Source of the DNA: Thermoplasmata archaeon | Lineage (GTDB): Archaea; Thermoplasmatota; E2; JACPAO01; JAHFTW01 | Assembly: GCA_034667725.1 (NCBI GenBank) | Contig: JAXDQS010000007.1 | Coordinates: 1-57,133 of the forward strand | Length of the DNA stretch: 57,133 nt | Reading direction: 5' to 3' | Part shown: in pieces, positions 17,764 through 57,133 of the stretch | How the letters are laid out: each line of letters starts with the position of its first letter | Position numbering within the stretch: the stretch's first letter is position 1 | Translations under genes and position numbers: made by a program | The notes under the pieces: generated by a model | Told to the model about the DNA's origin: nothing | Database searches by the model: none | What the model saw: only the letters and a program-made list of their open reading frames with translations

Positions 17764-17777
17764 GCGTCCGCGAATCG

Positions 17778-18071
17778 CCGACTGGACACAGATTCCACAG
17801 AGTTCTGAGGGAATCTTCCGAATCTGTGCGAATCAGTGCTCGTCGCGGGCCGGCGACTGGACACAGATTCCACAGAGTTCTGTGGGAATCTTCCGAATCT
17901 GAGGGAATCAGTGCTCGTCGCGGGGCCGCCGACTGGACGCAGATTCCACAGAGTTCTGTGGGAATCTTCCGAATCTGAGGGAATCAGTGCCCGTCGCGGG
18001 CCGCCGACTGGACACAGGTTCCGCAGAGTTCTGTGGGAATCTTCCGAATCTGAGGGAATCAGTGCCCGTCG
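17778..18071. repeat. four tandem ~75-bp palindromic units (REP-like)
   Basis: GACTGG at 17780, 17855, 17931, 18006; consensus cgactggacacagattccacagagttctgtgggaatcttccgaatctgagggaatcagtgcccgtcg. Confidence 0.93.
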
Positions 18072-18709
18072 AGCGCCGCCGCCTTGCGTGCCTTGCGCCC
18101 CTTCCGCACCTCATAGACGACGTAGGCCACTAGGAGCACCAGCAGCACCACGCCGACCAGGTCGAGGTAAGGCTTGGCGGCGTCGATGGCGGCTTGGCCG
18201 TAGCGGTAGCCCAGCCAGAACAGGAACATGTTCCAGATCGTGGCGCCGACGGCGGTGGCGGCCAGGAACGGCCCCAGCGGCATCCGGGCCGCGCCGGCGG
18301 GCATACTCGAGACATGGCGCACGCCCGGAATGAAGCGGCACAGGAACACCGCCCAGACGCCGCGGCGCGCGAAGAACGCGTGCGCCTTGGCGACGTGGTG
18401 CGGCTGCACGAAGACGTAGCGGCCGTAGCGCTCCACCAGCGGCAGCAGGCCATGCTTGCCCATGAGGTAGCCGAGCCACGAGCCCAAGAGCGAGCCCGCC
18501 GTCGAGGCCAACAACACGCCGAGGACGGACATCTCGCCGCGCGCCGCCGCCAGCCCCGCGAACGGCATGACGGCCTCGCTCGGCACCGGGAACACCATGC
18601 TCTCGGCGGCCATGAGCAGGAACACGCCCCACAGGCCGGTGGCCGCGAGGACCGCCTGCGCCGTCTCGGTCAGCCAGTGCAGGAGGTCGCCGACGACGCC
18701 CACGCCCAA
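18059..18709 (-). CDS. dedA: DedA family membrane protein
   Basis: ESMVFPVPSE, RFIPGVRH, AGAARM motifs. Confidence 0.9.
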   Translation of the reverse strand: MGVGVVGDLLHWLTETAQAVLAATGLWGVFLLMAAESMVFPVPSEAVMPFAGLAAARGEMSVLGVLLASTAGSLLGSWLGYLMGKHGLLPLVERYGRYVFVQPHHVAKAHAFFARRGVWAVFLCRFIPGVRHVSSMPAGAARMPLGPFLAATAVGATIWNMFLFWLGYRYGQAAIDAAKPYLDLVGVVLLVLLVAYVVYEVRKGRKARKAAALDGH

Positions 18710-25973: not shown

Positions 25974-27507
25974 CGGCTCCCTCCAGCTTGAACGGCAGCG
26001 CCTTCTCGCCCTGCACCGAGACCTCCATCATGATGCGCGCGACCTCGGCGGCGTCGAAGATGCCGCGGCGCACCATCTCCTCCAGGATCAAGGTGCGGCG
26101 GGCCAGCATGTCGTACACCTTGCGGGTGTCCTCCATGCCCAAGAGCGGCGCGATCTTCTTCTCCAGGATGTGGCTGTTGTTGAGACCCTGGAACCGCAGC
26201 GTGTCCTCGACCAGGTCGTGCGTGAACACCGGGATCGCGACCACGCCCTCGGGGGAGCTGCCGGCGATCTCGACGATCTTGGTGACGCGCCGGACGCGCC
26301 GGCCGTTGACCATGCGGGCCTCCTGGAACAGCGCCACGTTCAGGTTGTCGATGAAGGTCATGGGCACGCTCATGGGCGCCGCCCCCAGGCGCTGCACCAG
26401 TGTCGTGGCGTCGGTGGCGTGGAACGTCGCCAGGGTGGCGTGACCGGTCTGCATCGCCTGGAACGCCACCGCGCCCTCGGCGCCGCGGATCTCGCCCACG
26501 ACGATGTAGTCGGGGCGGCTGCGCAGGGCCGCGCGCAGCAGGTCGAACATCTTGACATGGCCCTCCGGGGGGCCGGTCTCGCGGGTCAGCAGGCGCTGCC
26601 AGATGCGGTGCGGCGGCCGGACCTCGGGCGTGTCCTCGGCGCTGTAGATCTTGCCGCGCGGGTCGATGAACGGCAGCATCGCGTTGAGGGTCGCGGTCTT
26701 GCCGCAGGCGGCCTCGCCGCACAGGAACATGCTCATGCCCTGCTGGAGGCAGATCCAGACGTAGGCGGCCGCCTCCGCCGAGATGGTGTTGAGCTGGATG
26801 AGGCGGGTGATGCTGAACGGCGCCTCCTTGCCGCGGCGCAGGCTGATGCTCGGGCCACGGCGCGACACATCCTCCGAGTAGACCAGGTTGAGGCGGCTGC
26901 CGTCGGGAAGCACTGCGTCCACGATGGGCGTCGAGTCGCTCACCGGGCGCCCCAGCCGCTCGCACAGCAGCCGGAGGAAGCGCACCAGGTCCACCGGGTC
27001 CTCGAAGCGGACGTTGGTGGGCATCATGCCGTGGATGGTGTGGATGACGTGCACCGCGTTGGTGCCCACGACGTGGATGTCCTCCAGGTGGATGTCGCGC
27101 AGCAGCGCGTCGATGGGGCCGTAGCCCGCCATGTCCTGCAGGACACGGTTCACGACGGGGTCGCTCGCGGGGTCCGCGCCCGGCCGCAGCGCCTGCACGA
27201 TGCCCAGCAGCGCCTCCTTCAGCGTGCCCTGGCGGGGCTGGTCGCCGCGCCGGGCCGCCTCGGCGCCGACCTCGGTGCGCAGCTTCTCGACCTCGACGAA
27301 GTCGTTGGGCCCGAGCTGCGGCTGCACCACATCGTAGCGCCAGAGGTTGTCGGCGCGCCGCAGGTGCGCCCACGCGCCGCCGCCCAACGGGTACACGACG
27401 TCCGGCGGGCCGCCGGGTTTGAGCTGGGCCGCGTCCGCGAGCACCAGCGGCGTGCTGCCGTCGGCGGCCACGCGGCGCAGGTGCGCCTGGAGGGTCGCGT
27501 CGCTCAT
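25954..27507 (-). CDS. arlI: archaellum ATPase ArlI, second copy
   Basis: PIVDAVLPDGSRLN, Walker A GEAACGKT, EDTPE, LRSRPDYIVVGEIRG, QTGH...TFHA. Confidence 0.88.
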   Translation of the reverse strand: MSDATLQAHLRRVAADGSTPLVLADAAQLKPGGPPDVVYPLGGGAWAHLRRADNLWRYDVVQPQLGPNDFVEVEKLRTEVGAEAARRGDQPRQGTLKEALLGIVQALRPGADPASDPVVNRVLQDMAGYGPIDALLRDIHLEDIHVVGTNAVHVIHTIHGMMPTNVRFEDPVDLVRFLRLLCERLGRPVSDSTPIVDAVLPDGSRLNLVYSEDVSRRGPSISLRRGKEAPFSITRLIQLNTISAEAAAYVWICLQQGMSMFLCGEAACGKTATLNAMLPFIDPRGKIYSAEDTPEVRPPHRIWQRLLTRETGPPEGHVKMFDLLRAALRSRPDYIVVGEIRGAEGAVAFQAMQTGHATLATFHATDATTLVQRLGAAPMSVPMTFIDNLNVALFQEARMVNGRRVRRVTKIVEIAGSSPEGVVAIPVFTHDLVEDTLRFQGLNNSHILEKKIAPLLGMEDTRKVYDMLARRTLILEEMVRRGIFDAAEVARIMMEVSVQGEKALPFKLEGAGEAGHH

Positions 27508-27654
27508 GCCTTCGGCCTCCGGCGGGCCGCCTCGATGGCGTCGAGCGTCACCTGGTCATCGAACGCGGCCAGGCCGGGCCGGCCGGCCCAAGCCATTCCG
27601 TTCACGTCTTCGGCCTCCGGCGGGCCGCCTCGATGGCGTCGAGCGTCACCTGGT
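27504..27654 (-). repeat. 47-bp direct duplication of the arlI-1 3' end around a hairpin spacer; 30-aa bridging ORF 27504-27596
   Basis: 27510-27556 identical to 27608-27654; ORF MAWAGRPGLAAFDDQVTLDAIEAARRRPKA* overlaps the arlI-2 ATG (ATGA). Confidence 0.85.
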
Positions 27655-29134
27655 AATCAAACTGGCCGCGGCCGACCAGGTCGTCGAGGATGGCGCGGCG
27701 GCGCTCCAGCTCGTCGTAGACCTGGCGCGGGTCGTCGAGGCCGAGGCGGGGCGCCACCAGGTTCTCGAGGACGTAGGAGTTGTTGCGGCCGCTGAACTCG
27801 TGCTTGTCCTGGACCGGGTCCCAGCGGAACACCTGGCGCGTGACCGGGCTCTTGAGGCGGCGGGAGTAGCTCTCGATCTCCTCGATCTCGATGACACGGC
27901 GCAGGCGGCGGCCGCCGACGTGGACGGCGAGCTGCACCAGCACGACGTTGAGGTTGGGCATGAACTGGCCCGGGACGCTGATGGGCGCGCTTGTCATGCG
28001 CTGGATGAGCTTGCCGACGCTGGAGGCGTGGAAGGTCGCGTAGGTGGCGTAGCCGGTCTGCATCGCCTGGAACGCGACGGCGCCCTCCTGGCCGCGGATT
28101 TCGCCGACGATGATGCGGTCGGGGCGGCTGCGGAGGCCCACCTTCAGGAGGTCGCCCATGTCGACGCGGCTGCCGGCCTCGCTGGAGTCGCGGGTGACGA
28201 GCTGCTGCCAGTTGCCGTGCGGCGGGCGCACCTCGGGCGTGTCCTCGGCGGTGAGGATTTTGGCGTCCTTCGGGACGAACGGCAAGAGGCCGTTGAGGGT
28301 GGTGGTCTTGCCGCTCGCGGTCTCGCCGCTCACGAACACGCTCATGCCCTGCTCCATGCAGAGCCACAGGTAGGCGGCGATGGTGGTGTCGAACGTGCCC
28401 CACGCGATCAGTTGGGTGACGGCGGTGGGGATGTCGCTGAACTTGCGGATGGTGAAGCTCGAGCCGCCAACGCTCACGCCTTCGCTGTAGATGATGTTGA
28501 TGCGGCTGCCGTCGGCAAGCGCGCCGTCCACGATGGGGCGGGACTGGCTGACGGGGCGGCCCATGCCTTCGGCCAGGTCGGCCAGGAAGGCGTCGAGGCG
28601 GCGCACGTCGGGGAAGCGGATGTTGGAGCGGCAGGCGCCGAACACCTTGTGGACCGGCCACAAGTCGGTGACGCCCATGGCGTGGATGTCCTCGATCCAC
28701 GGGTCGCGGATGAGCGGCTCCAGCTCCTTGGCGCCGACGACGCGCTTGGCCGTGTGGTAGCGCACCGCCTGGCGGGTCGCCCCGGCCAGGCCGTTGGCAT
28801 CGAGGATCTGCTCCAGCATCGCGCCCAGCGCCTTCTCGAAGTCGCCGTGGCCTTCCGGCAGCGGCGCGCTGGTCACGCGCGCGAACACGGCGTCCTTGGC
28901 GGCCTGGACCTGCGCCTCCATCCCCTCGTCCAGCACCGGCTCCAGCGCGGTGTAGTTGGCGAACTGCGCGCCCTCCGTGATGTGGACCCAGATGTCGTCG
29001 TTGACGCGGTAGAGCAGGTTGTAGGGCCGCTTGTCCTTGGCGCCGCGGGTCAGCTTCTCCAGCATCTCGGGCTGCGGCTTGCCGGACTGGACGTGCCGCG
29101 CCACGTGGGCGGCGACGTGGGGCGGGACGTTCAG
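27602..29134 (-). CDS. arlI: archaellum ATPase ArlI, first copy (probable CTG start)
   Basis: LEPLIRDPWIEDI, PIVDGALADGSRINIIYS, Walker A GETASGKT, RSRPDRIIVGEIRG, NNSYVLE. Confidence 0.9.
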   Translation of the reverse strand: MNVPPHVAAHVARHVQSGKPQPEMLEKLTRGAKDKRPYNLLYRVNDDIWVHITEGAQFANYTALEPVLDEGMEAQVQAAKDAVFARVTSAPLPEGHGDFEKALGAMLEQILDANGLAGATRQAVRYHTAKRVVGAKELEPLIRDPWIEDIHAMGVTDLWPVHKVFGACRSNIRFPDVRRLDAFLADLAEGMGRPVSQSRPIVDGALADGSRINIIYSEGVSVGGSSFTIRKFSDIPTAVTQLIAWGTFDTTIAAYLWLCMEQGMSVFVSGETASGKTTTLNGLLPFVPKDAKILTAEDTPEVRPPHGNWQQLVTRDSSEAGSRVDMGDLLKVGLRSRPDRIIVGEIRGQEGAVAFQAMQTGYATYATFHASSVGKLIQRMTSAPISVPGQFMPNLNVVLVQLAVHVGGRRLRRVIEIEEIESYSRRLKSPVTRQVFRWDPVQDKHEFSGRNNSYVLENLVAPRLGLDDPRQVYDELERRRAILDDLVGRGQFDYQVTLDAIEAARRRPKT

Positions 29135-29862
29135 CCCACCACCGCCTTGATCTCGATGACGATGCCGACGCGGGGCTCGACGCGGAAACCGATGGTCTCC
29201 GAGTAGCGGCGCGCGGCGCGGCTCATGCGCTCGACCACGATGCGGCGGTTGGTGGCAGCACCCACGCGCTCCTTCTCGAGGCGGAGGAAGATGTCGGCCG
29301 CGACCGTGAACGGCTCCAGTGCGTGCGGGTCGGCCTGGGTCGGGTCCAAGGTCAGCACGATGGTCTTGCCGGCACCGGTGAGCCGCTTGAACAGGTGCAG
29401 CACGGCCTCGACGGTGTCCATCGCCGTGGCCATGTCCGGGTTCTCGGCCATGTGGTCGCCGACGATCTTGGAGAAGGTGTCGAACAGGATGACGTCGAGC
29501 TCGTAGAGGCGGCGGGCCTTCAGCAGCCGGGCGAGGCGGTCGCCGCGCGGGGAGCGCTCGCCGATGATGGGGTGGGTCGGCACGAACACGAAGCGCTCGG
29601 CGGGGATGGCGTCCCAGGCCTCGCCGTAGCCGAGGCTGTCCATCTGGTCGAGCATGCCGCGGGTGGTGAGCTCGGTCGAGACGTAGGCGACGCGGACGTT
29701 GCTGCGCAGCAGGCCTTGGGTGATGCGCTGGCACAGCACCGACTTGCCGGCGCCGACCGGGCCGTCGAGCACGATGAGCGCCCCCTTGGGCAGGCCGCCG
29801 CCGAGCCGGGTGGCAAGGTCGTCCTGCTTCAGGTCGAAGTGGTGGAAGGAGTCCTCGCCCAT
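29131..29862 (-). CDS. arlH: archaellum RecA/KaiC-like ATP-binding protein ArlH
   Basis: RLGGGLP, GPVGAGKS..QR, YVSTE, FRVEP..GI.IEI. Confidence 0.92.
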   Translation of the reverse strand: MGEDSFHHFDLKQDDLATRLGGGLPKGALIVLDGPVGAGKSVLCQRITQGLLRSNVRVAYVSTELTTRGMLDQMDSLGYGEAWDAIPAERFVFVPTHPIIGERSPRGDRLARLLKARRLYELDVILFDTFSKIVGDHMAENPDMATAMDTVEAVLHLFKRLTGAGKTIVLTLDPTQADPHALEPFTVAADIFLRLEKERVGAATNRRIVVERMSRAARRYSETIGFRVEPRVGIVIEIKAVVG

Positions 29863-49581: not shown

Positions 49582-50331
49582 TTGGGGAATCGGCTGGTTT
49601 GGTTGCACGGTCGGCTTGGCATCATTTTGGTCTGCGCTGCGTTGATGGTAGGCATTGGCGCAACGGTTTTTATCGTAAATTCGATGACCGATTGCGAGCG
49701 CTTTGAATGGACCATTGGCACTGGCGTGGACGACCAGGTCCGCATCGACCTCAACGGGGATTGGCGCCCGGGGCTGACGTCCAACGTCATGGCCATCCCA
49801 CGGAGTTGCCCGCTGGACGAAGCCCAGTTCCATTGGACGGTTCGAGGCCCAACGCCTCAGCAAGTGCGCCAGTTTGAAGGTGAATCCATCACGGTTCCGT
49901 GGGAGTCTCCTGGTGAGTACTTGATTGCCTTGACCGTGTCGAAGGCCTCAGGGGAACTTGCCTACTCTGGAACGGGGCCTGCTGCCTGGAGCTACGTCAG
50001 GGAGGCCACCATGGAAGCCACCAACTCGACCATGTCGCTTCGGATTCCCGTCACATGCTGTGCACGCTACTTGGATGTCGCATGGTTGAACGCTGCAAAC
50101 CTAGGCGCCAATGCGCGCTTTTCACTCTACGATGGCGCTGGCAAGCCGATTGTCACCGGTGCCAATGAAATCCACATCGGACAAACGTTCTCGTGGCCCA
50201 ACGACATCGTCTACGGCGACTTCCTGCTGCTGGTGGAGCAGGACGTGACGCCCGAGGCCAGGCTCGGCCTTGGCCAATCCCGCGACTTCGGGTTGCGGGT
50301 CCACTATTCTCCTGGATACACACAATGGTGA
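49582..50331 (+). CDS. membrane-anchored protein with PKD/Ig-like domain (lower-GC islet)
   Basis: N-terminal TM; FHW...GESITVPWESPGEYLIALTV PKD-like pattern; start uncertain. Confidence 0.55.
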   Translation: MGNRLVWLHGRLGIILVCAALMVGIGATVFIVNSMTDCERFEWTIGTGVDDQVRIDLNGDWRPGLTSNVMAIPRSCPLDEAQFHWTVRGPTPQQVRQFEGESITVPWESPGEYLIALTVSKASGELAYSGTGPAAWSYVREATMEATNSTMSLRIPVTCCARYLDVAWLNAANLGANARFSLYDGAGKPIVTGANEIHIGQTFSWPNDIVYGDFLLLVEQDVTPEARLGLGQSRDFGLRVHYSPGYTQW

Positions 50332-50335
50332 AACA

Positions 50336-51928
50336 ATGAACCAAACGACAAGGATAGTGGCTGTTGCGCTTTTGCTCGCAGCCGGCAGCCTGCCCACGTT
50401 CACGAACGCGGCCCCTCTCTGCACCGATGCCGTGGCGCTGCTGGCGCTGGCCGGGCAAACCTCGACGCTCGACGCCCAAGACTCGGACGGTGACCACATC
50501 AGTGACTACGCGGAGATGAATTACCTGAACACCAGTCCGTGCAATAGCAATTCCGACGGTGATTCTGTGCCAGATGGCATCGACGGCACGCCCAACGCCC
50601 AAGGCGTCAAGATTCCGTTCAACCTTGCAGTTCTGGCCATCAACCAAATCGAGTTGGACAATGAATGCGACGAGGGTTCCAATTGGGACCCTTACCTCAC
50701 GGCATGGAATGTCGAGGTCCGTCCGCTGTCGCTCAACAAACAGGTGTCCGCGCTCGATTGGACGGAGGGCGGGCACCAAGACAACCGCCCCAACGAGAAC
50801 ACCAATCCGACGCTGTTCACCAACGGGCAGGACGCCGCGGCAAGCGGAAACCTGCTCACGTTCCAGCTCGACCCGAACCTGGACATGTGGGGCCTGTTCA
50901 CGGGGGACGTTGGCGTCGGGCTGGCGGGCGGAGTGATGGCAGTTGACCATGATGACACGCGCCACGACCTGATGCCCTTCAATGTCGGGGAAATCAAAAT
51001 CATCCCCTCGGCGACCGGTGGGCCCACATCCGTCGTTTGGACATCGCAATTGGCTACAGACTCCGACACTCCGACGCCCTTCAAGTGCCGGACCCAGATA
51101 GTCATGGAGGCCAAGGTCAGTCTTCCGGCGGAGATTGAAGAGACCTTCGAAGCCCTCCAAGCCATTGGCCCCGACAACTTCGTCGACTGCGGCGATGAGA
51201 TCGACTGCACTTACCATGGCGGAAATCCGGGGTCCCCGATTCCCATCATCGGCGCTGCTCTTCCGTACTCCCCGGGCAGCAACATCTGCGACGACTCGCT
51301 GCTGCATACGCCTGCCGCCCTTGGAGCCCAGTTCAACGCCGCGGTGCCCGCGCCGAGCCAAGCCTTGGGCCAGTGCGAAGCACGCCCGGTCGATGGCGGG
51401 CATGAAGACCCCTTCCAGCCCGCCTTGTGCATGGACGGCAGCGTCGATGTGCTCCCACGCTACCGGTCATTCTACGCAAGCGCCCCGTCCGTCAGCATGG
51501 GAACCTATGTCGAATACCTGGTCAACCTGCGCGCGACCTACACTTTGGCGACGGCAGCCGGGCCACGGACGACGAGCTACGACTCCTGGTTCGACCTTGC
51601 CCACAAGCAGGGCGATCCGCAGGTTGGCTTCGCGGCGATGCCTGGCTGCTCGATTTCTGCTGTCCAAGTCACCGTGCAAGACATCCAGGTCAGGACCGCG
51701 ACCGGCACGCTGCATTCCATTGCAATCAAGAACGGCTGCCAAGCGCTCGCCTCAATGCCGGCAGTCTCGCTTCAAGGGCTGCAGTTTGCGTATGTCCTGC
51801 CCGAGATTCGGCTCGCAGCGGCGACCGGCCTCGTTGGCGAGAGTGGCGAATGCCTCATCGCCGACGACCCGATTGGCGGCCAGCTTGGAACCGCGGACGG
51901 CGCCGAGTTCTTCGCGGCGTTCGCCTGA
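50336..51928 (+). CDS. secreted Cys-rich protein with thrombospondin type 3-like Ca-binding repeats (lower-GC islet)
   Basis: GGTGA SD, signal peptide, DSDGDHISDYAE and NSDGDSVPDGID. Confidence 0.7.
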   Translation: MNQTTRIVAVALLLAAGSLPTFTNAAPLCTDAVALLALAGQTSTLDAQDSDGDHISDYAEMNYLNTSPCNSNSDGDSVPDGIDGTPNAQGVKIPFNLAVLAINQIELDNECDEGSNWDPYLTAWNVEVRPLSLNKQVSALDWTEGGHQDNRPNENTNPTLFTNGQDAAASGNLLTFQLDPNLDMWGLFTGDVGVGLAGGVMAVDHDDTRHDLMPFNVGEIKIIPSATGGPTSVVWTSQLATDSDTPTPFKCRTQIVMEAKVSLPAEIEETFEALQAIGPDNFVDCGDEIDCTYHGGNPGSPIPIIGAALPYSPGSNICDDSLLHTPAALGAQFNAAVPAPSQALGQCEARPVDGGHEDPFQPALCMDGSVDVLPRYRSFYASAPSVSMGTYVEYLVNLRATYTLATAAGPRTTSYDSWFDLAHKQGDPQVGFAAMPGCSISAVQVTVQDIQVRTATGTLHSIAIKNGCQALASMPAVSLQGLQFAYVLPEIRLAAATGLVGESGECLIADDPIGGQLGTADGAEFFAAFA

Positions 51929-52067
51929 GAGCAAGGACTTCCCTTATCCCCTCGTCCTTTGATTTTTGCCCGCGCTGACGCATGTTTGCCCTTGATGGGG
52001 TTTCCTTGCTGCACCCGGCTCGCTGAACTGACGAATCGATGATTTCAGCCGCGCCTTCGGCGCCGGC

Positions 52068-52362
52068 CTAGATGACCTGGACTTCGTCGATTTCCCCTTG
52101 CGGCCGATGCCCCTCCGATTCGCTGTCCTTCGCTGTCGCTCGGACCAGCTTCACGGTGCGGCGCGACCGCAAGGTCCGCTCGCCGTCGCTGCGCTCGGCT
52201 CGCTGAGATCGACGAAGGCCGCGCATCTGGGCGCTGCGAGCCTCAGATGACTTGCACCCCTTGCGGCCGCCCTGACGGTCGGCCGCAAAGGTCCGGCGCG
52301 GCCGCTTCGCGGCCTGCCTGTGCAAGTGCTCTGCCCTCGCCTTCGCTGCGCGCTCGGCTCGG
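52068..52362 (-). repeat. two related hairpin insertions downstream of nusA, each followed by a displaced copy of the nusA 3' end
   Basis: Copies at 52243-52257 (VQVI*) and 52068-52094 (EIDEVQVI*); both inserts share cccttgcggccg, ccgcaa(a)ggtccg and tcgctgcg(cg)ctcggctcg. Confidence 0.85.
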
Positions 52363-52842
52363 TCAGATCACTTGCACTTCGTCAATCTCGTGGTGCCGCT
52401 TCGCGATGTGGCGAATCGACGCGATGTTGCGGCCCTGCTTGCCGATGGCCTTGCCTTTGTCCTTCGCCTCGACCTCGACAATCGCCCTAATCTTGATCTT
52501 GGGCTCGGGCGCGGGAGCGTCGGGGTTGCTGGGGTCCGGGGGCGGGGTGAGCGCCAGGGACTCCATGCGGATGGAGGCGACGTCGAACGGCTTGAACAGG
52601 TTCCGGATGAAGACCTGCTTGTCGTCGTCCCATTCGACGAACTTGACGTCCTTCTTCAGAAGCTCGCGCATCATCTGGAGGTTCTTTGCCTCCTTGCCGA
52701 GGGCTTGGCCGAGGTGCCCTTTCTCGGTGATGAAGACGATGCGCTCGCCCTCGTCGACGGCGTCCTTGATGCGGGCGCGCAGGCGCTTCTCGGCCTCGGT
52801 GATGAGGCCGATGGTTTCCATGGAAAGGGAGAGGTCCGCCAT
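52363..52842 (-). CDS. nusA: archaeal NusA-like KH protein
   Basis: Two KH motifs (ALGKEAKN, AIGKQGRN); follows rpl30e. Confidence 0.92.
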   Translation of the reverse strand: MADLSLSMETIGLITEAEKRLRARIKDAVDEGERIVFITEKGHLGQALGKEAKNLQMMRELLKKDVKFVEWDDDKQVFIRNLFKPFDVASIRMESLALTPPPDPSNPDAPAPEPKIKIRAIVEVEAKDKGKAIGKQGRNIASIRHIAKRHHEIDEVQVI

Positions 52843-53150: not shown

Positions 53151-54752
53151 CTACTCCTCCTTGGAGGCGGTCTCCGCCTCGCCCTTCTCTTCGGCGAACT
53201 CGGGGCCGGCCTCGCCCTCGATGGAGAGCGTGGCGGCCTCTTGCACGATGGGGATGGTGCTGATCGGCGTCGGCATGGTCTTCTTGAGCTGCGCGAGCTT
53301 CTTGATGTCCATGGCGAGGCGCACGGCGCCGGTGCCGAGGTTGACGGGCTGGCCGACGATGATGTTCTCGGCCACACCGTTGAGGGGGTCCACCTCGCCG
53401 ATCATGCCCGCGGTCAGCAGGTGGTCGACGGTGATCTCGAAGGCGGCGCGCGCCAGGATCGAGGACTTCTGGCCCGAGACACCCTGGCGGCCGATGGCCT
53501 TGACCTCGCCGTCGGCCGTCATGACGTCGGCGACGAGCATCAGGTGGCGCAGGTCCACTTGGAGACCTTGGCCCTTCAGGGTGCCGAACGCCTCGTCCAT
53601 GATGGCTTGGCGGGCGGCCTCGATGCCGAGCTGGTCCTGGATCTGCAGGATGTCGTTGGTCTGGACGCGCGAGTGGTCGATGCCCTGGATCTCCAGGATG
53701 GCCTGCAGGTTGCTGCCCTCGGTGAAGAGGATGTAGCCCTTCTCGCCCTCGTCGCGGCGGATGACCAGGCGGGTGATGCCGTCGATGCCCTTGACCTTGA
53801 CCTTCTTGAGGTCCTCGACGGCGCGCTGCAGGTTCTTGAAGTTCGGCTCGGCGAGCTTGACCAGGATCTTGGGTTGGGCCTTCTTGCCTTCGCCCTTCTC
53901 CTCGGTGGCGTTGATGCGGCGCACCGCGTTGACGGCGGTGAGCACCTCCTCCATCGAGATGTCCTTCTCGGCCATCTTGTCGGTGTCGGGGATGACGCGG
54001 ATCTCCAGGTTGCCGAGGTCGGCCTCGACGGCGGCGATGTCCTTGAGGCTCGTCGTCTCGATCATGTTCGCGATGCGGGTCGCCGTGGCGCGGTCGGCCT
54101 TGACGTCCGGCTTCAGGAAGATGGTCATCGTCGGAGTGCTCGGGGTGCGCCGGGCGTCCACGATCTCGATGAGGCGCGGCAGGCCCAGGGTGACGTTGAT
54201 CTCGGCGACACCGGCGAAGTGGAAGGTGCGCATGGTCATCTGGGTGCCCGGCTCGCCGATCGACTGGGCGCCGACGATGCCGGCGGCCTCGGTCGCGTCG
54301 ACCTTCGCCTTGCGGTACTCGGCAAGCGCCAGGTCGACGGCCAGCTTGAGCTGGGCGTCGGAGAAGTCGCGCTCGAGGCCGCCGTCCACGATCTTGCGGA
54401 CGATGCGCTGCGGCAGGGCGGCGTCCTGCTCGGCGAGGTAGGCCACGAGGATCGTGTCCTTCTTGAGCCGGGCGGGGTCGCGGGTCTCCAGCTTGGCGAC
54501 GTAGCCCTCGTAGGCGCGCGCGTCCTCGACCACCGCCTTCTTGGTGCGGCGGGCGGCGGCGTCGCGCTTGCCCTTCGAGAGCTTGAGCATGATCTGCTCG
54601 ACCTCGTTGCCGGTGAAGCCGGCGTCCATGAACTTCTTCTTGTCCGCGGACTTGGCTTGCGTGACGGTGAACGCCTCGGCCAGCCGGCTGGCGGTGTCGT
54701 GGTCGAACCCGTACGTCTTCTCGAAGGACTTCACGGTCTGCGCGTTGGCCAT
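53151..54752 (-). CDS. rpo1C: DNA-directed RNA polymerase subunit A''
   Basis: [53 protein letters not shown]. Confidence 0.97.
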
Positions 54753-57133
54753 CTACTTGCCTCCCTTCTTGGCGCCCTTGGCGTCGCGGACGACCTGGGC
54801 GAAGATCTGCTCGAAGTCGACGGGCTCGCCGCCGACGGAGCGCGTGGGGTCCACGCCGTCTTCACCGTAGGTGAACTGGATGATGGTGCCGGCGGTGTTG
54901 CGCACGGTGCCGTCCTCGGCGACCTTGAGGTCTTCGAGGGCGTTGATGAGGCGGCGCTGCATGTAGCCGGAGCGGCTGGTGCGGACGGCGGTGTCGACCA
55001 GGCCTTCGCGGCCACCCATGGAGTGGAAGAAGTACTCCGTGGGCGTGAGGCCGGTCTTGTAGCTCGCGGCCACGAAGCCCTTGGCCTCGGCGCCGAGGTC
55101 GCCCCACTTGAAGTGGGGGAGCGTGCGCTTCTGGTAGCCGCGGTGGATGCGCTTGCCGCGGACGGCCTGCTGGCCGACGAGGCCGGCCATCTGCGACAGG
55201 TTGAGCATCGAGCCGCGCGCGCCGCAGCGCGCCATGAGAACGGCCGAGTTGTCCATGCCGAGCGACCGCGAAGCCGTTTCACCGGCGGCGGCACGGGCCT
55301 GGCCGGTCTCGCGCATGATCTCCATCTCGAGGGTCTCCTCGACGGAGCGGCCGGGCAGCGCAGGCAGGTCGCCCTTGGCGTACTGCTTGAGGAGCTCGGC
55401 GACGCGGACCTTGGTCATCTTGATTTTCTCGGCGATCTCGTGGGCGGCCTCGGGCGGCAGGTCCTCGTCCTCGATGGAGGTGGAGAAGCCGCGCAGGGTC
55501 AGGAAGCCGTTGCCGACCTTGGTGACCTTGTCGAGGAACTTGCGCGCCTCGTTGTTGCCGTAGCGGCGGGCGATGTGGTCCAGCAGCTTGCCCTTCTCGG
55601 ACGCGATGGCGGACTTGTCGATGCCGCCCTGCTTGAGCTGCGAGTCCTCGATGACGACCCAGAAGTCGTTCTCCGGCTTCTTGGCGTCCTCCTTGCCCAT
55701 GCCGCCGGGGCAGGCGTTGGCCTTGAAGCTCAGGTTGATGCCCGGGGGCAGCAAGGTGCTGAACAGGTCGCGGCCGAAGACGAAGCGGCGGGTCTCGCCG
55801 CGGGCGTCCTTCTCCTCATGGATGGCGGGCAGCTGGCCCTTGAAGCCGACGCGGGCGAGAACCTGCGTGGCGTCGTCGAGCTCGAGCTTCGGGTTCTTCC
55901 ACGTGAGCAGGAAGTTGCCCGAGATGTGGTCGTGGATGGCCCCGATGATGGGTCCGCCGAAGCGGGGAGAGCGGATGTTCTCCTGCACCTTCATCAGGAT
56001 CTCGGCCTCGGCGCGGGCCTCCTCGCCCTGGATGACGTGCATGTTCATCTCGTCGCCGTCGAAGTCCGCGTTGTAGGGCGGGCAGCACGGCAGGTTGAAC
56101 CTGAACGTCTTGCCGGGCATGACGCGCACCGTGTGCGCCATCATCGACATGCGGTGCAGCGTCGGCTGCCGGTTGAACAGCACGACGTCGCCGTCATCGA
56201 GCTGGCGCTCGACGATGGATCCGACCTCGAGGCGCTTGGCGACCTCGTCGGCGTTCTTGTCGGTGACCTTGACGCGGCGGCCGTCCGGGCGGATCACGTA
56301 GTTCGTGCCCGGGATGTACTTGCCCTCGGGGCCCGGCTTGGGCTCGGGGCCGCGCAGGATCATGTCCATGCAGTACTGGAAGTTCGCCGGGGTGACGCGG
56401 ATCGGCACCGTCAGCTCCTGGGCGCACTCGGCCGGGACGCCGACCTCGTTGATCGAGAGGTTGGGGTCGGGGCTGATGACCGTGCGGGCCGAGAAGTTGA
56501 CGCGCTTGCCCGACAGGTTCGAGCGGAAGCGGCCTTCCTTGCCCTTCAGGCGCTGGCTGATGGTCTTCAGCGGGCGGCCGGAGCGGTGACGGGCAGGCGG
56601 GATGCCGGCCGTCTGGTTGTCGAAGTACGTCGTGATGTGGTACTGCAGCAGCTCCCACAGGTCCTCGACGATCAGCTGCGGGGCACCGGCGTCGCGGTTC
56701 TCCTGCAGGCGCTGGTTGATGCGGATGACGTCGACCAGCTTGTGCGTCAGGTCGTCCTCCGAGCGCTCGCCGGATTCCAGCGTGATCGAGGGGCGCATGG
56801 TCACCGGCGGCACGGGCAGCACGGTCAGGACCATCCACTCGGGGCGGCAGACGCTCGGGTTGAGGCCGAGCAGGTGCAGGTCCTCGTTGGGGACCTTCTC
56901 GAGCCACTCGCGCACTTCCGACGGCGTCATCTTGTGGCCGTTCTCGCGGAAGGTCGTGGGTTTGTCGACGTCGATGGTGCCGTGCTCGCGCCCGCAGTGC
57001 GGGCACACGGTCACGTTGGAGGCTTCCTTGGCGACGCGCTTGGCCAGGAGCTGGGTGTCCTTCTCCTCCTGGATGTACGTCTTGAGGGACTTGTCGAAGT
57101 CCTGGCGGATGCGCTCCCCGAAGAGGAGCTTGC
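54753..57133 (-). CDS. rpo1N: DNA-directed RNA polymerase subunit A' (5' part lies outside the window)
   Basis: Catalytic YNADFDGDEMN, GKRVNFSART, GGREGLVDTAVRT. Confidence 0.98.
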   Translation of the reverse strand, partial: KLLFGERIRQDFDKSLKTYIQEEKDTQLLAKRVAKEASNVTVCPHCGREHGTIDVDKPTTFRENGHKMTPSEVREWLEKVPNEDLHLLGLNPSVCRPEWMVLTVLPVPPVTMRPSITLESGERSEDDLTHKLVDVIRINQRLQENRDAGAPQLIVEDLWELLQYHITTYFDNQTAGIPPARHRSGRPLKTISQRLKGKEGRFRSNLSGKRVNFSARTVISPDPNLSINEVGVPAECAQELTVPIRVTPANFQYCMDMILRGPEPKPGPEGKYIPGTNYVIRPDGRRVKVTDKNADEVAKRLEVGSIVERQLDDGDVVLFNRQPTLHRMSMMAHTVRVMPGKTFRFNLPCCPPYNADFDGDEMNMHVIQGEEARAEAEILMKVQENIRSPRFGGPIIGAIHDHISGNFLLTWKNPKLELDDATQVLARVGFKGQLPAIHEEKDARGETRRFVFGRDLFSTLLPPGINLSFKANACPGGMGKEDAKKPENDFWVVIEDSQLKQGGIDKSAIASEKGKLLDHIARRYGNNEARKFLDKVTKVGNGFLTLRGFSTSIEDEDLPPEAAHEIAEKIKMTKVRVAELLKQYAKGDLPALPGRSVEETLEMEIMRETGQARAAAGETASRSLGMDNSAVLMARCGARGSMLNLSQMAGLVGQQAVRGKRIHRGYQKRTLPHFKWGDLGAEAKGFVAASYKTGLTPTEYFFHSMGGREGLVDTAVRTSRSGYMQRRLINALEDLKVAEDGTVRNTAGTIIQFTYGEDGVDPTRSVGGEPVDFEQIFAQVVRDAKGAKKGGK

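Follow-up and report, generated by a model that had tools for sequence, protein, structure and literature searches.

The nusA locus and its inserts

The window analysed here is a stretch of 57,133 nt from a metagenome-assembled Thermoplasmata genome (2.32 Mb, 26 contigs, 90% complete), whose nearest relatives are uncultured Thermoplasmatota from groundwater, soil and sand. It carries an archaeal nusA gene, preceded on the same strand by rpoA', rpoA'' and an L7Ae/L30e-family gene. The last codons of nusA are found three times in series around two inserts, and the features concerned are the following:

54753-57131, minus strand: rpoA', upstream neighbour of nusA
53151-54752, minus strand: rpoA'', upstream neighbour of nusA
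52363-52842, minus strand: archaeal nusA, the live gene (159 aa, two KH domains, KH_5 and KH_2)
52363-52389, minus strand: end copy A, in service (last 8 codons and TGA)
52258-52362, minus strand: cassette 2, the newer insert, 105 nt (inverted pairs and fold)
52243-52257, minus strand: end copy B, displaced (last 4 codons and TGA; one synonymous difference to copy A)
52095-52242, minus strand: cassette 1, the older insert, 148 nt (inverted pairs, core match and fold)
52068-52094, minus strand: end copy C, displaced (last 8 codons and TAG)
52008-52067, minus strand: probable decayed third cassette (52011-52030 being 75% like 52191-52210; fold; reading of the sequence)

The inserts have rpoA'', the L7Ae/L30e-family gene and an unannotated convergent ORF as neighbours. 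They contain no gene, and no integrase fragments or coding remains were found in or beside them. A scan of 51800-52500 against Rfam 15 gave nothing at the gathering score and two sub-threshold matches at chance level. As to the surroundings, rps12/rps7 are not next after nusA here, unlike in many archaea. The region downstream (49600-51950) has a G+C content of about 58-62%, compared to 65-70% around it, and holds long ORFs without a Pfam match, including a convergent one of 552 codons (50270-51928).

A preliminary description of this stretch had reported three synonymously recoded 3' ends for nusA, and this was borne out by the coordinates, by the kind of differences and by counts over the genome. 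Copy C differs from copy A by five third-position differences and a stop swap, and all differences among the three copies are either synonymous third-position changes or swaps of TGA and TAG. In a six-frame search of the whole 2.32-Mb genome, the string of four residues plus stop was matched 3 times, always at the nusA locus, against 0.04 expected matches, and the string of eight residues plus stop was matched 2 times against 1e-8 expected. All three copies fall within 325 nt. Chance can therefore be excluded as the origin of these copies.

The same description had taken the farthest copy for the original end, as the one with the most host-like codons. This difference turned out to be weak (6 vs 5 of 8 codons ending in G/C), and among relatives both codon versions occur in either position. 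Codon usage was also tried across loci for telling original from new copies and rejected, as the trend was inconsistent. The stretch past copy C (52008-52067) is probably what remains of a still older cassette, so that copy C is unlikely to be the original end. Recognisable in this stretch are a hairpin (52048-52067), an anti-end arm in degenerate form (52025-52045) and, of the core described below, the initial 6 nt (52019-52024). It is the weakest part of the anatomy; a displaced nusA end was sought past it and none was recognisable.

Read in the sense of the gene, both inserts follow one order: an apex with a G-N-A-loop hairpin after the stop, an inverted copy of the gene end, a core, and a closing structure (P3). 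The gene end together with its inverted copy forms a long hairpin (P1). The parts are located as follows:

52356-52377: cassette 2, 5' arm of P1, overlapping the stop
52342-52355: cassette 2, apex
52320-52341: cassette 2, anti-end arm of P1
52297-52311: cassette 2, GNA-loop hairpin
52290-52297: cassette 2, degenerate core
52258-52291: cassette 2, closing hairpin P3
52230-52242: cassette 1, apex
52205-52229: cassette 1, anti-end arm
52173-52204: cassette 1, conserved core (6 nt, small hairpin, 10 nt)
52096-52106/52164-52174: cassette 1, outer stem of the closing structure P3

The claim that the two inserts are homologous is supported. They are structured units with two modules in common (52179-52194/52336-52351 and 52155-52170/52290-52305) and a shared border. 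The border beside the displaced copies, which had been described as the same, is indeed an exact run of 13 nt (52094-52106 and 52257-52269), and it corresponds to the 3' arm of P3. As a whole, the 393 nt from 52000 to 52392 fold far better than shuffled sequences, with z-scores of -6.9 for RNA and -6.1 for DNA.

The inverted matches to the gene end that had been pointed out are real, with 82% over 22 nt for 52320-52341/52356-52377 and 88% over 16 nt for 52205-52220/52079-52094. In the case of the second pair, the proposed partner has to be revised, as the upstream part of the live end (52377-52389) is an equally good or better match for 52205-52220. The arm at 52205-52220 represents the hairpin partner of the end that served before insert 2. 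Correspondingly, the last 15 nt of copy A are part of cassette 2 and its first 12 nt are the leftover 5' arm of cassette 1; copy B is the tail of the end used before cassette 2 and still pairs with 52224-52229. In the RNA fold, the first 12-13 nt of the live end pair with 52205-52217 across insert 2, implying that insert 2 entered the older hairpin. Cassette 2 is thus predicted by this fold to be nested within P1 of cassette 1.

The inverted arms had been called anti-nusA arms. Each of them makes up the 3' half of a hairpin to which the gene end belongs, and these hairpins show compensatory changes across species. The arms are thus structural partners, and not evidently antisense regulators. 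Where the live end of a species has changed synonymously, the arm has changed in the complementary way, and a consensus fold of three species recovers P1, P2 and P3, with compensatory changes at four pairs. When each anti-end arm was compared with the end copies on its two sides, the one directly upstream gave the better fit in 10 of 10 units. The core is conserved, with a possible tandem G-A motif, and the small hairpin inside it shows many different stem sequences from copy to copy. Cassette and gene always have the same orientation. Whole units also occur in tandem arrays, and successive units of one array differ in loops and arms.

Cassettes at other gene ends and in relatives

Two scans were combined to define the number of such loci in the genome. 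In the first, all long ORFs were tested for a downstream copy of their last residues and stop, and the second was carried out at the nucleotide level, ignoring translation. The count leaves out several unrelated tandem repeats and the tail that ribosomal P0 and P1 have in common. About 22 credible loci with an end-insert-end layout were obtained, with duplications of 15-94 nt spaced 72-316 nt apart, and two tRNAs show the same layout. In a scan for duplicated 5' ends of genes, low-complexity and other repeats dominated the output. Among the targets of the 3' duplications are FtsZ, A-ATPase subunit A, a class II aminoacyl-tRNA synthetase, PolD DP2, aCPSF1/FttA, a DRG GTPase, glutamate dehydrogenase (GDH), acyl-CoA dehydrogenase, an ABC1 kinase and TFB. 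What had been presented as a peculiarity of one core gene is in fact found at protein and tRNA gene ends throughout the genome and the family. The possibility that translation reads through into the displaced copy was considered and rejected, as the spacing is divisible by three in only about 11 of 24 cases.

A comparison of the inserts with the rest of the genome, which had been suggested beforehand, was productive: the core of cassette 1 recurs at the end of the TFB gene on another contig (C1), with 97% identity over 33 nt, and the arms of this cassette match TFB and not nusA. At this locus (235.8-236.4 kb, minus strand), the live end copy has no in-frame stop, and in the assembly the ORF reads on across the cassette and past it, which adds ~170 codons. 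At a distance of ~100 nt downstream there is a displaced copy that has a stop, followed further on by what may be an older tail of different sequence. The missing stop could be due to a sequencing indel or to a real C-terminal extension.

Besides the nusA type, families of multi-copy inserts of ~70-110 nt are found with 5-11 copies in the genome. They are flanked by locus-specific duplications of 15-64 nt, which are identical or nearly so when young (44/44, 21/21, 48/49 and 36/37 nt) and vary in length even within one family. Two of these duplications concern tRNA genes, where 44/44 nt span the 3' part and trailer of tRNA-Tyr and 21/21 nt belong to tRNA-Thr. The identical flanks of the young multi-copy cassettes show that some events, at least, create a true duplication of the target instead of importing an end. 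Two further loci deserve a description:

contig C3, 174676-174776: multi-copy cassette, two codons before the native stop (49-nt duplication, 48/49)
window, 27504-27662, minus strand: end duplication at the secretion-type ATPase gene 27602-29734

In the C3 case the duplication excludes the stop, and the live protein gains a new two-residue tail encoded by the cassette. Because this 49-nt duplication ends two codons short, duplication is not tied to the stop codon. In the case of the ATPase gene, the second instance within the window, its final 61 nt recur 98 nt further down, on the other side of a GC-rich insert of 37 nt (27565-27601), with four differences between the copies, two of them non-synonymous. 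The downstream copy retains the stop/start overlap with the next gene and may for this reason still serve its translation start. The window also contains a tandem array at 17776-18081, in which a 75-nt unit is present 4.1 times (93% matches). Units related to it occur here and there on other contigs (C3, C5 and C6), and this family is distinct from the gene-end cassettes.

A comparison of nusA 3' regions across relatives, as had been proposed, revealed alleles with 0, 1, 2 and 3 inserts. In four species of the genus or family nusA has no cassette, other relatives have one cassette with a displaced copy of 27 nt or 15 nt, and one genome shows three displaced copies. In some relatives with a nusA cassette the displaced copy is truncated, decayed or gone. 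This comparison supports repeated gain and loss of cassettes. Other genes showed similar patterns. At FttA, this genome is the only one of 14 in the genus with cassettes, two in series followed by a degenerate third end. A gene encoding a DUF7121 protein has cassettes in six species and none in three, and the duplication begins at the same nucleotide wherever the displaced copy survives.

The nusA-type core was found 0-9 times per genome and in 12 of 15 members of the family. In total, 38 matches were obtained within the family against one for a reversed control, and one match in ten genomes outside the family. Thirty core-type loci were read individually: 17 of them follow a long ORF of the same orientation at a distance of no more than 110 nt, 3 directly follow tRNA genes, and seven retain a displaced end. 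Altogether, the end-cassette architecture was seen in >20 independently assembled genomes and metagenome contigs from different studies. Exact-protein look-ups with NusA and three other targets returned only the source sample, and the nearest public NusA is <=93% identical. These look-ups gave no near-isogenic empty site and no pair of empty and filled alleles in a near-identical background in which an insertion could be seen directly, which counts against the mobile reading.

Origin of the duplicated ends

One alternative is an ordinary insertion with a long target-site duplication. Here, widely staggered nicks would give two identical copies that then diverge where they are, with selection acting on the live copy and neutral drift on the displaced one. 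The young multi-copy cassettes with their nearly perfect flanks are what such a process would leave behind, and nusA cassette 2 and its displaced copy show a single base difference. Under target duplication and neutral drift of the displaced copy, about 45% of the differences would be expected at third positions. The observed differences do not follow this expectation. Between live and displaced copies of this genome, 53 of 68 fall on third positions, and most of those at second positions are stop swaps. A hand tally over nusA-type pairs across genomes gave roughly 87 third-position differences, 8 at first positions (7 of them synonymous, in Leu or Arg codons) and 1 at a second position, with ~2 non-synonymous among roughly 96.

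The displaced nusA copies of three species point the same way, with 1-2 third-position differences and 0/18 at first or second positions, while nusA third positions differ by 20-35% among these species, without a drop near the 3' end. In the same species the cassette stems differ by ~17% and the sequence past the displaced copy is unalignable. Neutral decay of a target-site duplication in place was therefore rejected for the diverged pairs on the codon-position counts. A long target duplication also leaves the source of the inverted arm without explanation, and overall we regard it as an unlikely account of these loci. A recent tract of homologous recombination over the nusA 3' end was rejected as well, as third-position divergence shows no decrease toward the end in the three species.

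Because the differences are almost only synonymous, the displaced copies appear to have been working gene ends until recently, or to have been repeatedly returned to service. The version of the nusA end that is live in this genome is found displaced in three relatives, and vice versa, which suggests an exchange of ends between lineages. In the case of DUF7121, live and displaced copies share a lineage-specific residue in every genome, even though most codons differ; as each lineage's own variable residue is shared by both copies, this argues against import from distant donors, with which it fits awkwardly. In three genomes with arrays of two DUF7121 cassettes, the first and third copies are nearly identical and the middle one uses the other synonymous codons, so that the two versions take turns along the array.

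The preliminary description had proposed serial replacement of the 3' end in a core gene. Serial replacement is the natural reading at nusA, because the inserts are bracketed by end copies and relatives carry zero to three of them; its limitation to a core gene did not hold. The account that we favour, and to which we attach moderate confidence, is that of mini-cassettes mobilised in trans, which restore the gene end at which they arrive, which have been inserted serially, and whose ends were also shuffled between alleles by recombination. The nusA stop region would accordingly hold two intact copies and probably one decayed copy of a non-coding, hairpin-rich cassette of ~105-150 nt. These would belong to a cassette population settling at the 3' ends of protein and tRNA genes in one uncultured Thermoplasmatota family.

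A cassette would arrive at the last 5-30 codons together with a full copy of these codons and the stop, so that the reading frame stays intact and the earlier end becomes untranslated downstream sequence. In the nusA type, the copy in service would form the 5' arm of the long hairpin with the inverted copy, followed by core and closing hairpin. New cassettes would enter at the base of, or inside, the previous hairpin, and arrays would for this reason grow outwards from the gene while the oldest units decay. We infer that some activity mobilises the cassettes in trans. In the diverged pairs, the live end would have come with the cassette from another lineage or allele instead of being copied on the spot. 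A folded hairpin that mimics the target end may help to find the site, by analogy to the att sites of CTX phage and integrons. The layout, its recurrence, its presence and absence among relatives, the covariation and the coding-type differences are observed directly; which enzyme acts, what form the intermediate takes and where the inverted arm comes from are inferred.

Possible mobilising enzymes were searched in the 90%-complete genome. There was no match to a Y1/RAYT (PF01797) or TnpB-type protein, with control genomes giving matches, and neither a reverse transcriptase (RVT_1) nor Cas1 was found. One borderline tyrosine recombinase (Phage_integrase, an Xer-like candidate) is present on another contig, and one DDE transposase lies on a contig that has no sequence in common with the cassettes. 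Overall, no recombinase, transposase or reverse transcriptase accounting for the cassettes was found in this genome at its 90% completeness, which counts against mobile cassettes. Two other possibilities were rejected, namely mutagenesis of the DGR type, as the copies show differences of all base types, and a bulge-helix-bulge intron, whose layout does not apply because both junctions are direct repeats and cannot pair in this manner.

A further alternative is that nothing is mobile and that the cassettes are resident functional 3'-UTR structures including the stop, such as a stabiliser, a terminator or a protein-binding site, duplicated by slippage, template switching or unequal crossing-over. 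Across genera the hairpin is maintained and covaries, which counts against mobile cassettes, and it could accordingly be a resident functional 3' element instead of a selfish one. Compensatory changes keep the gene-end hairpin across species and genera, the core with its possible tandem G-A motif is conserved, the orientation is always that of the gene, the fold z-scores are near -7, and whole units occur in tandem. The distribution is difficult to reconcile with a resident structure, however. The cassettes are patchy among close species, to the point that at FttA this genome stands alone, and the same core lies behind unrelated genes and tRNAs. In addition, the multi-copy families have locus-specific flanking duplications, the units of an array differ in loops and arms and are thus not simple tandem copies, and no Rfam match was obtained. 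We consider a purely resident structure rather improbable.

The inserts could also be scars of large integrase-mobilised elements such as proviruses, plasmids or islands, whose attP carried the gene end and whose interior was deleted. A layout that restores the gene, at 3' ends of tRNA and protein genes, is typical of these elements, as in e14 at icd (PMC6379469). Random internal deletions are nevertheless disfavoured because the inserts are uniformly 40-270 nt in size and their architecture and core are conserved across >20 genomes. The inserts hold no integrase fragments or coding remains, and the genome has a single borderline tyrosine recombinase. Such scars appear very doubtful as an explanation.

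Finally, it is hardly credible that the assembler joined strain variants of the nusA end in series, even in a metagenome-assembled bin where strain variants would look like synonymous differences, as the same architecture recurs in >20 genomes and metagenome contigs that different studies assembled independently, the inserts are structured and covarying sequence outside genes, and the source contig (128 kb) is identical over the 3.5 kb compared.

Should serially inserted, end-restoring cassettes be the correct reading, the 3' ends of genes essential to these archaea, such as nusA, TFB, FtsZ, PolD, FttA and an aminoacyl-tRNA synthetase, would be routinely edited by elements of ~100 nt while the proteins stay unchanged. 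This would constitute a route of gene-restoring DNA insertion that needs no element-encoded protein, and the history of successive insertions could be read from the stacked displaced ends. That the displaced copies are conserved in the manner of coding sequence implies that turnover is very fast or that integration is reversible, and each of these would be informative on recombination in uncultured archaea. The cassettes are also relevant to how hairpins of 3' UTRs and short "orphan" ORFs are annotated in the genomes of archaea and CPR bacteria, and a hairpin able to direct insertion by mimicking its target would make an interesting tool. In this sense, the wider picture in the genome and family is more interesting than nusA alone.

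A bolder proposal can be put forward tentatively. The cassettes may belong to a distinct and widespread protein-less class of mobile elements that home to the 3' ends of conserved genes and tRNAs by means of a folded mimic of the target, bring their own synonymous end and leave precisely, with both copies under lasting coding selection over evolutionary time, and that occur in Thermoplasmatota, DPANN, methanogens and CPR by means of an unrecognised enzyme or a host pathway. We see this as possible, with the balance against it.

Comparison with known systems

A full-text literature search gave no description of such cassettes, which is not proof of absence. The closest parallels are elements that insert at the 3' end of a gene or tRNA and restore it, like e14/phage 21, P4-like elements and archaeal tRNA elements. 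In the case of e14/phage 21 at icd, the gene receives from the prophage a 3' end that differs slightly, and a short icd pseudo-copy stays behind (PMC6379469). The old end is likewise left downstream as a short pseudo-copy with mostly conservative differences (PMC6379469). The cassettes resemble attP-type insertions in being bracketed by two target 3' ends with a restored gene and in using tRNA 3' ends too. They differ in that no recombinase is encoded or adjacent and in that there is no single fixed target with an identical attL/attR core, the copies differing along their whole length. Elements of the e14 type are kilobase-sized, carry their own integrase and use one fixed target, whereas the cassettes measure 40-270 nt, are protein-less and have dozens of targets per genome. 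Furthermore, the cassette hairpin contains the gene end, and there is no associated integrase.

The second parallel lies in folded attachment sites, as used by CTX phage (XerCD at dif) and integrons (attC). The order of live end, loop, inverted copy, rest of the element and displaced end matches these systems, in layout only, and would be the expected outcome when a target-mimicking hairpin recombines with its target. G-N-A loops are unusually stable in single-stranded DNA, and tandem G-A pairs are also a stability motif. CTX phage and integrons rely on a fixed core and a dedicated tyrosine recombinase, whereas in the cassettes the 'site' differs at every gene; no conserved core for such recombination is common to the different targets, and the genome holds one Xer-like candidate.

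Like MITEs, REP/REPIN sequences and small palindromic repeats, the cassettes are small, non-coding, hairpin-rich and multi-copy (5-11 copies here, and a core found up to 9 times in relatives), and they lie mostly after genes. Their inverted repeats are internal hairpins, however, and not end-to-end terminal repeats, their duplications are long and variable (15-94 nt) instead of short and fixed, and their arms are gene-specific, unlike those of MITE or REP elements. Regarding REP/RAYT and IS200/IS605 elements, the genome has no Y1 (HUH) transposase, and the cassettes have duplications, which insertion of such elements does not produce. Regarding retroelements (group II introns, retrons and DGRs), there is no RVT_1 match, and differences of all base types are found, not the adenine-specific ones expected between DGR repeats. 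Long target duplications of tens of bases are made by IS1634-group insertion sequences and during CRISPR spacer integration. These need a DDE transposase or Cas1-Cas2, respectively, and neither is linked to the cassettes.

Altogether, we class the cassettes as a variation on the gene-end-restoring insertion already known, with an appreciable chance that they will form a distinct class once the mechanism is known.
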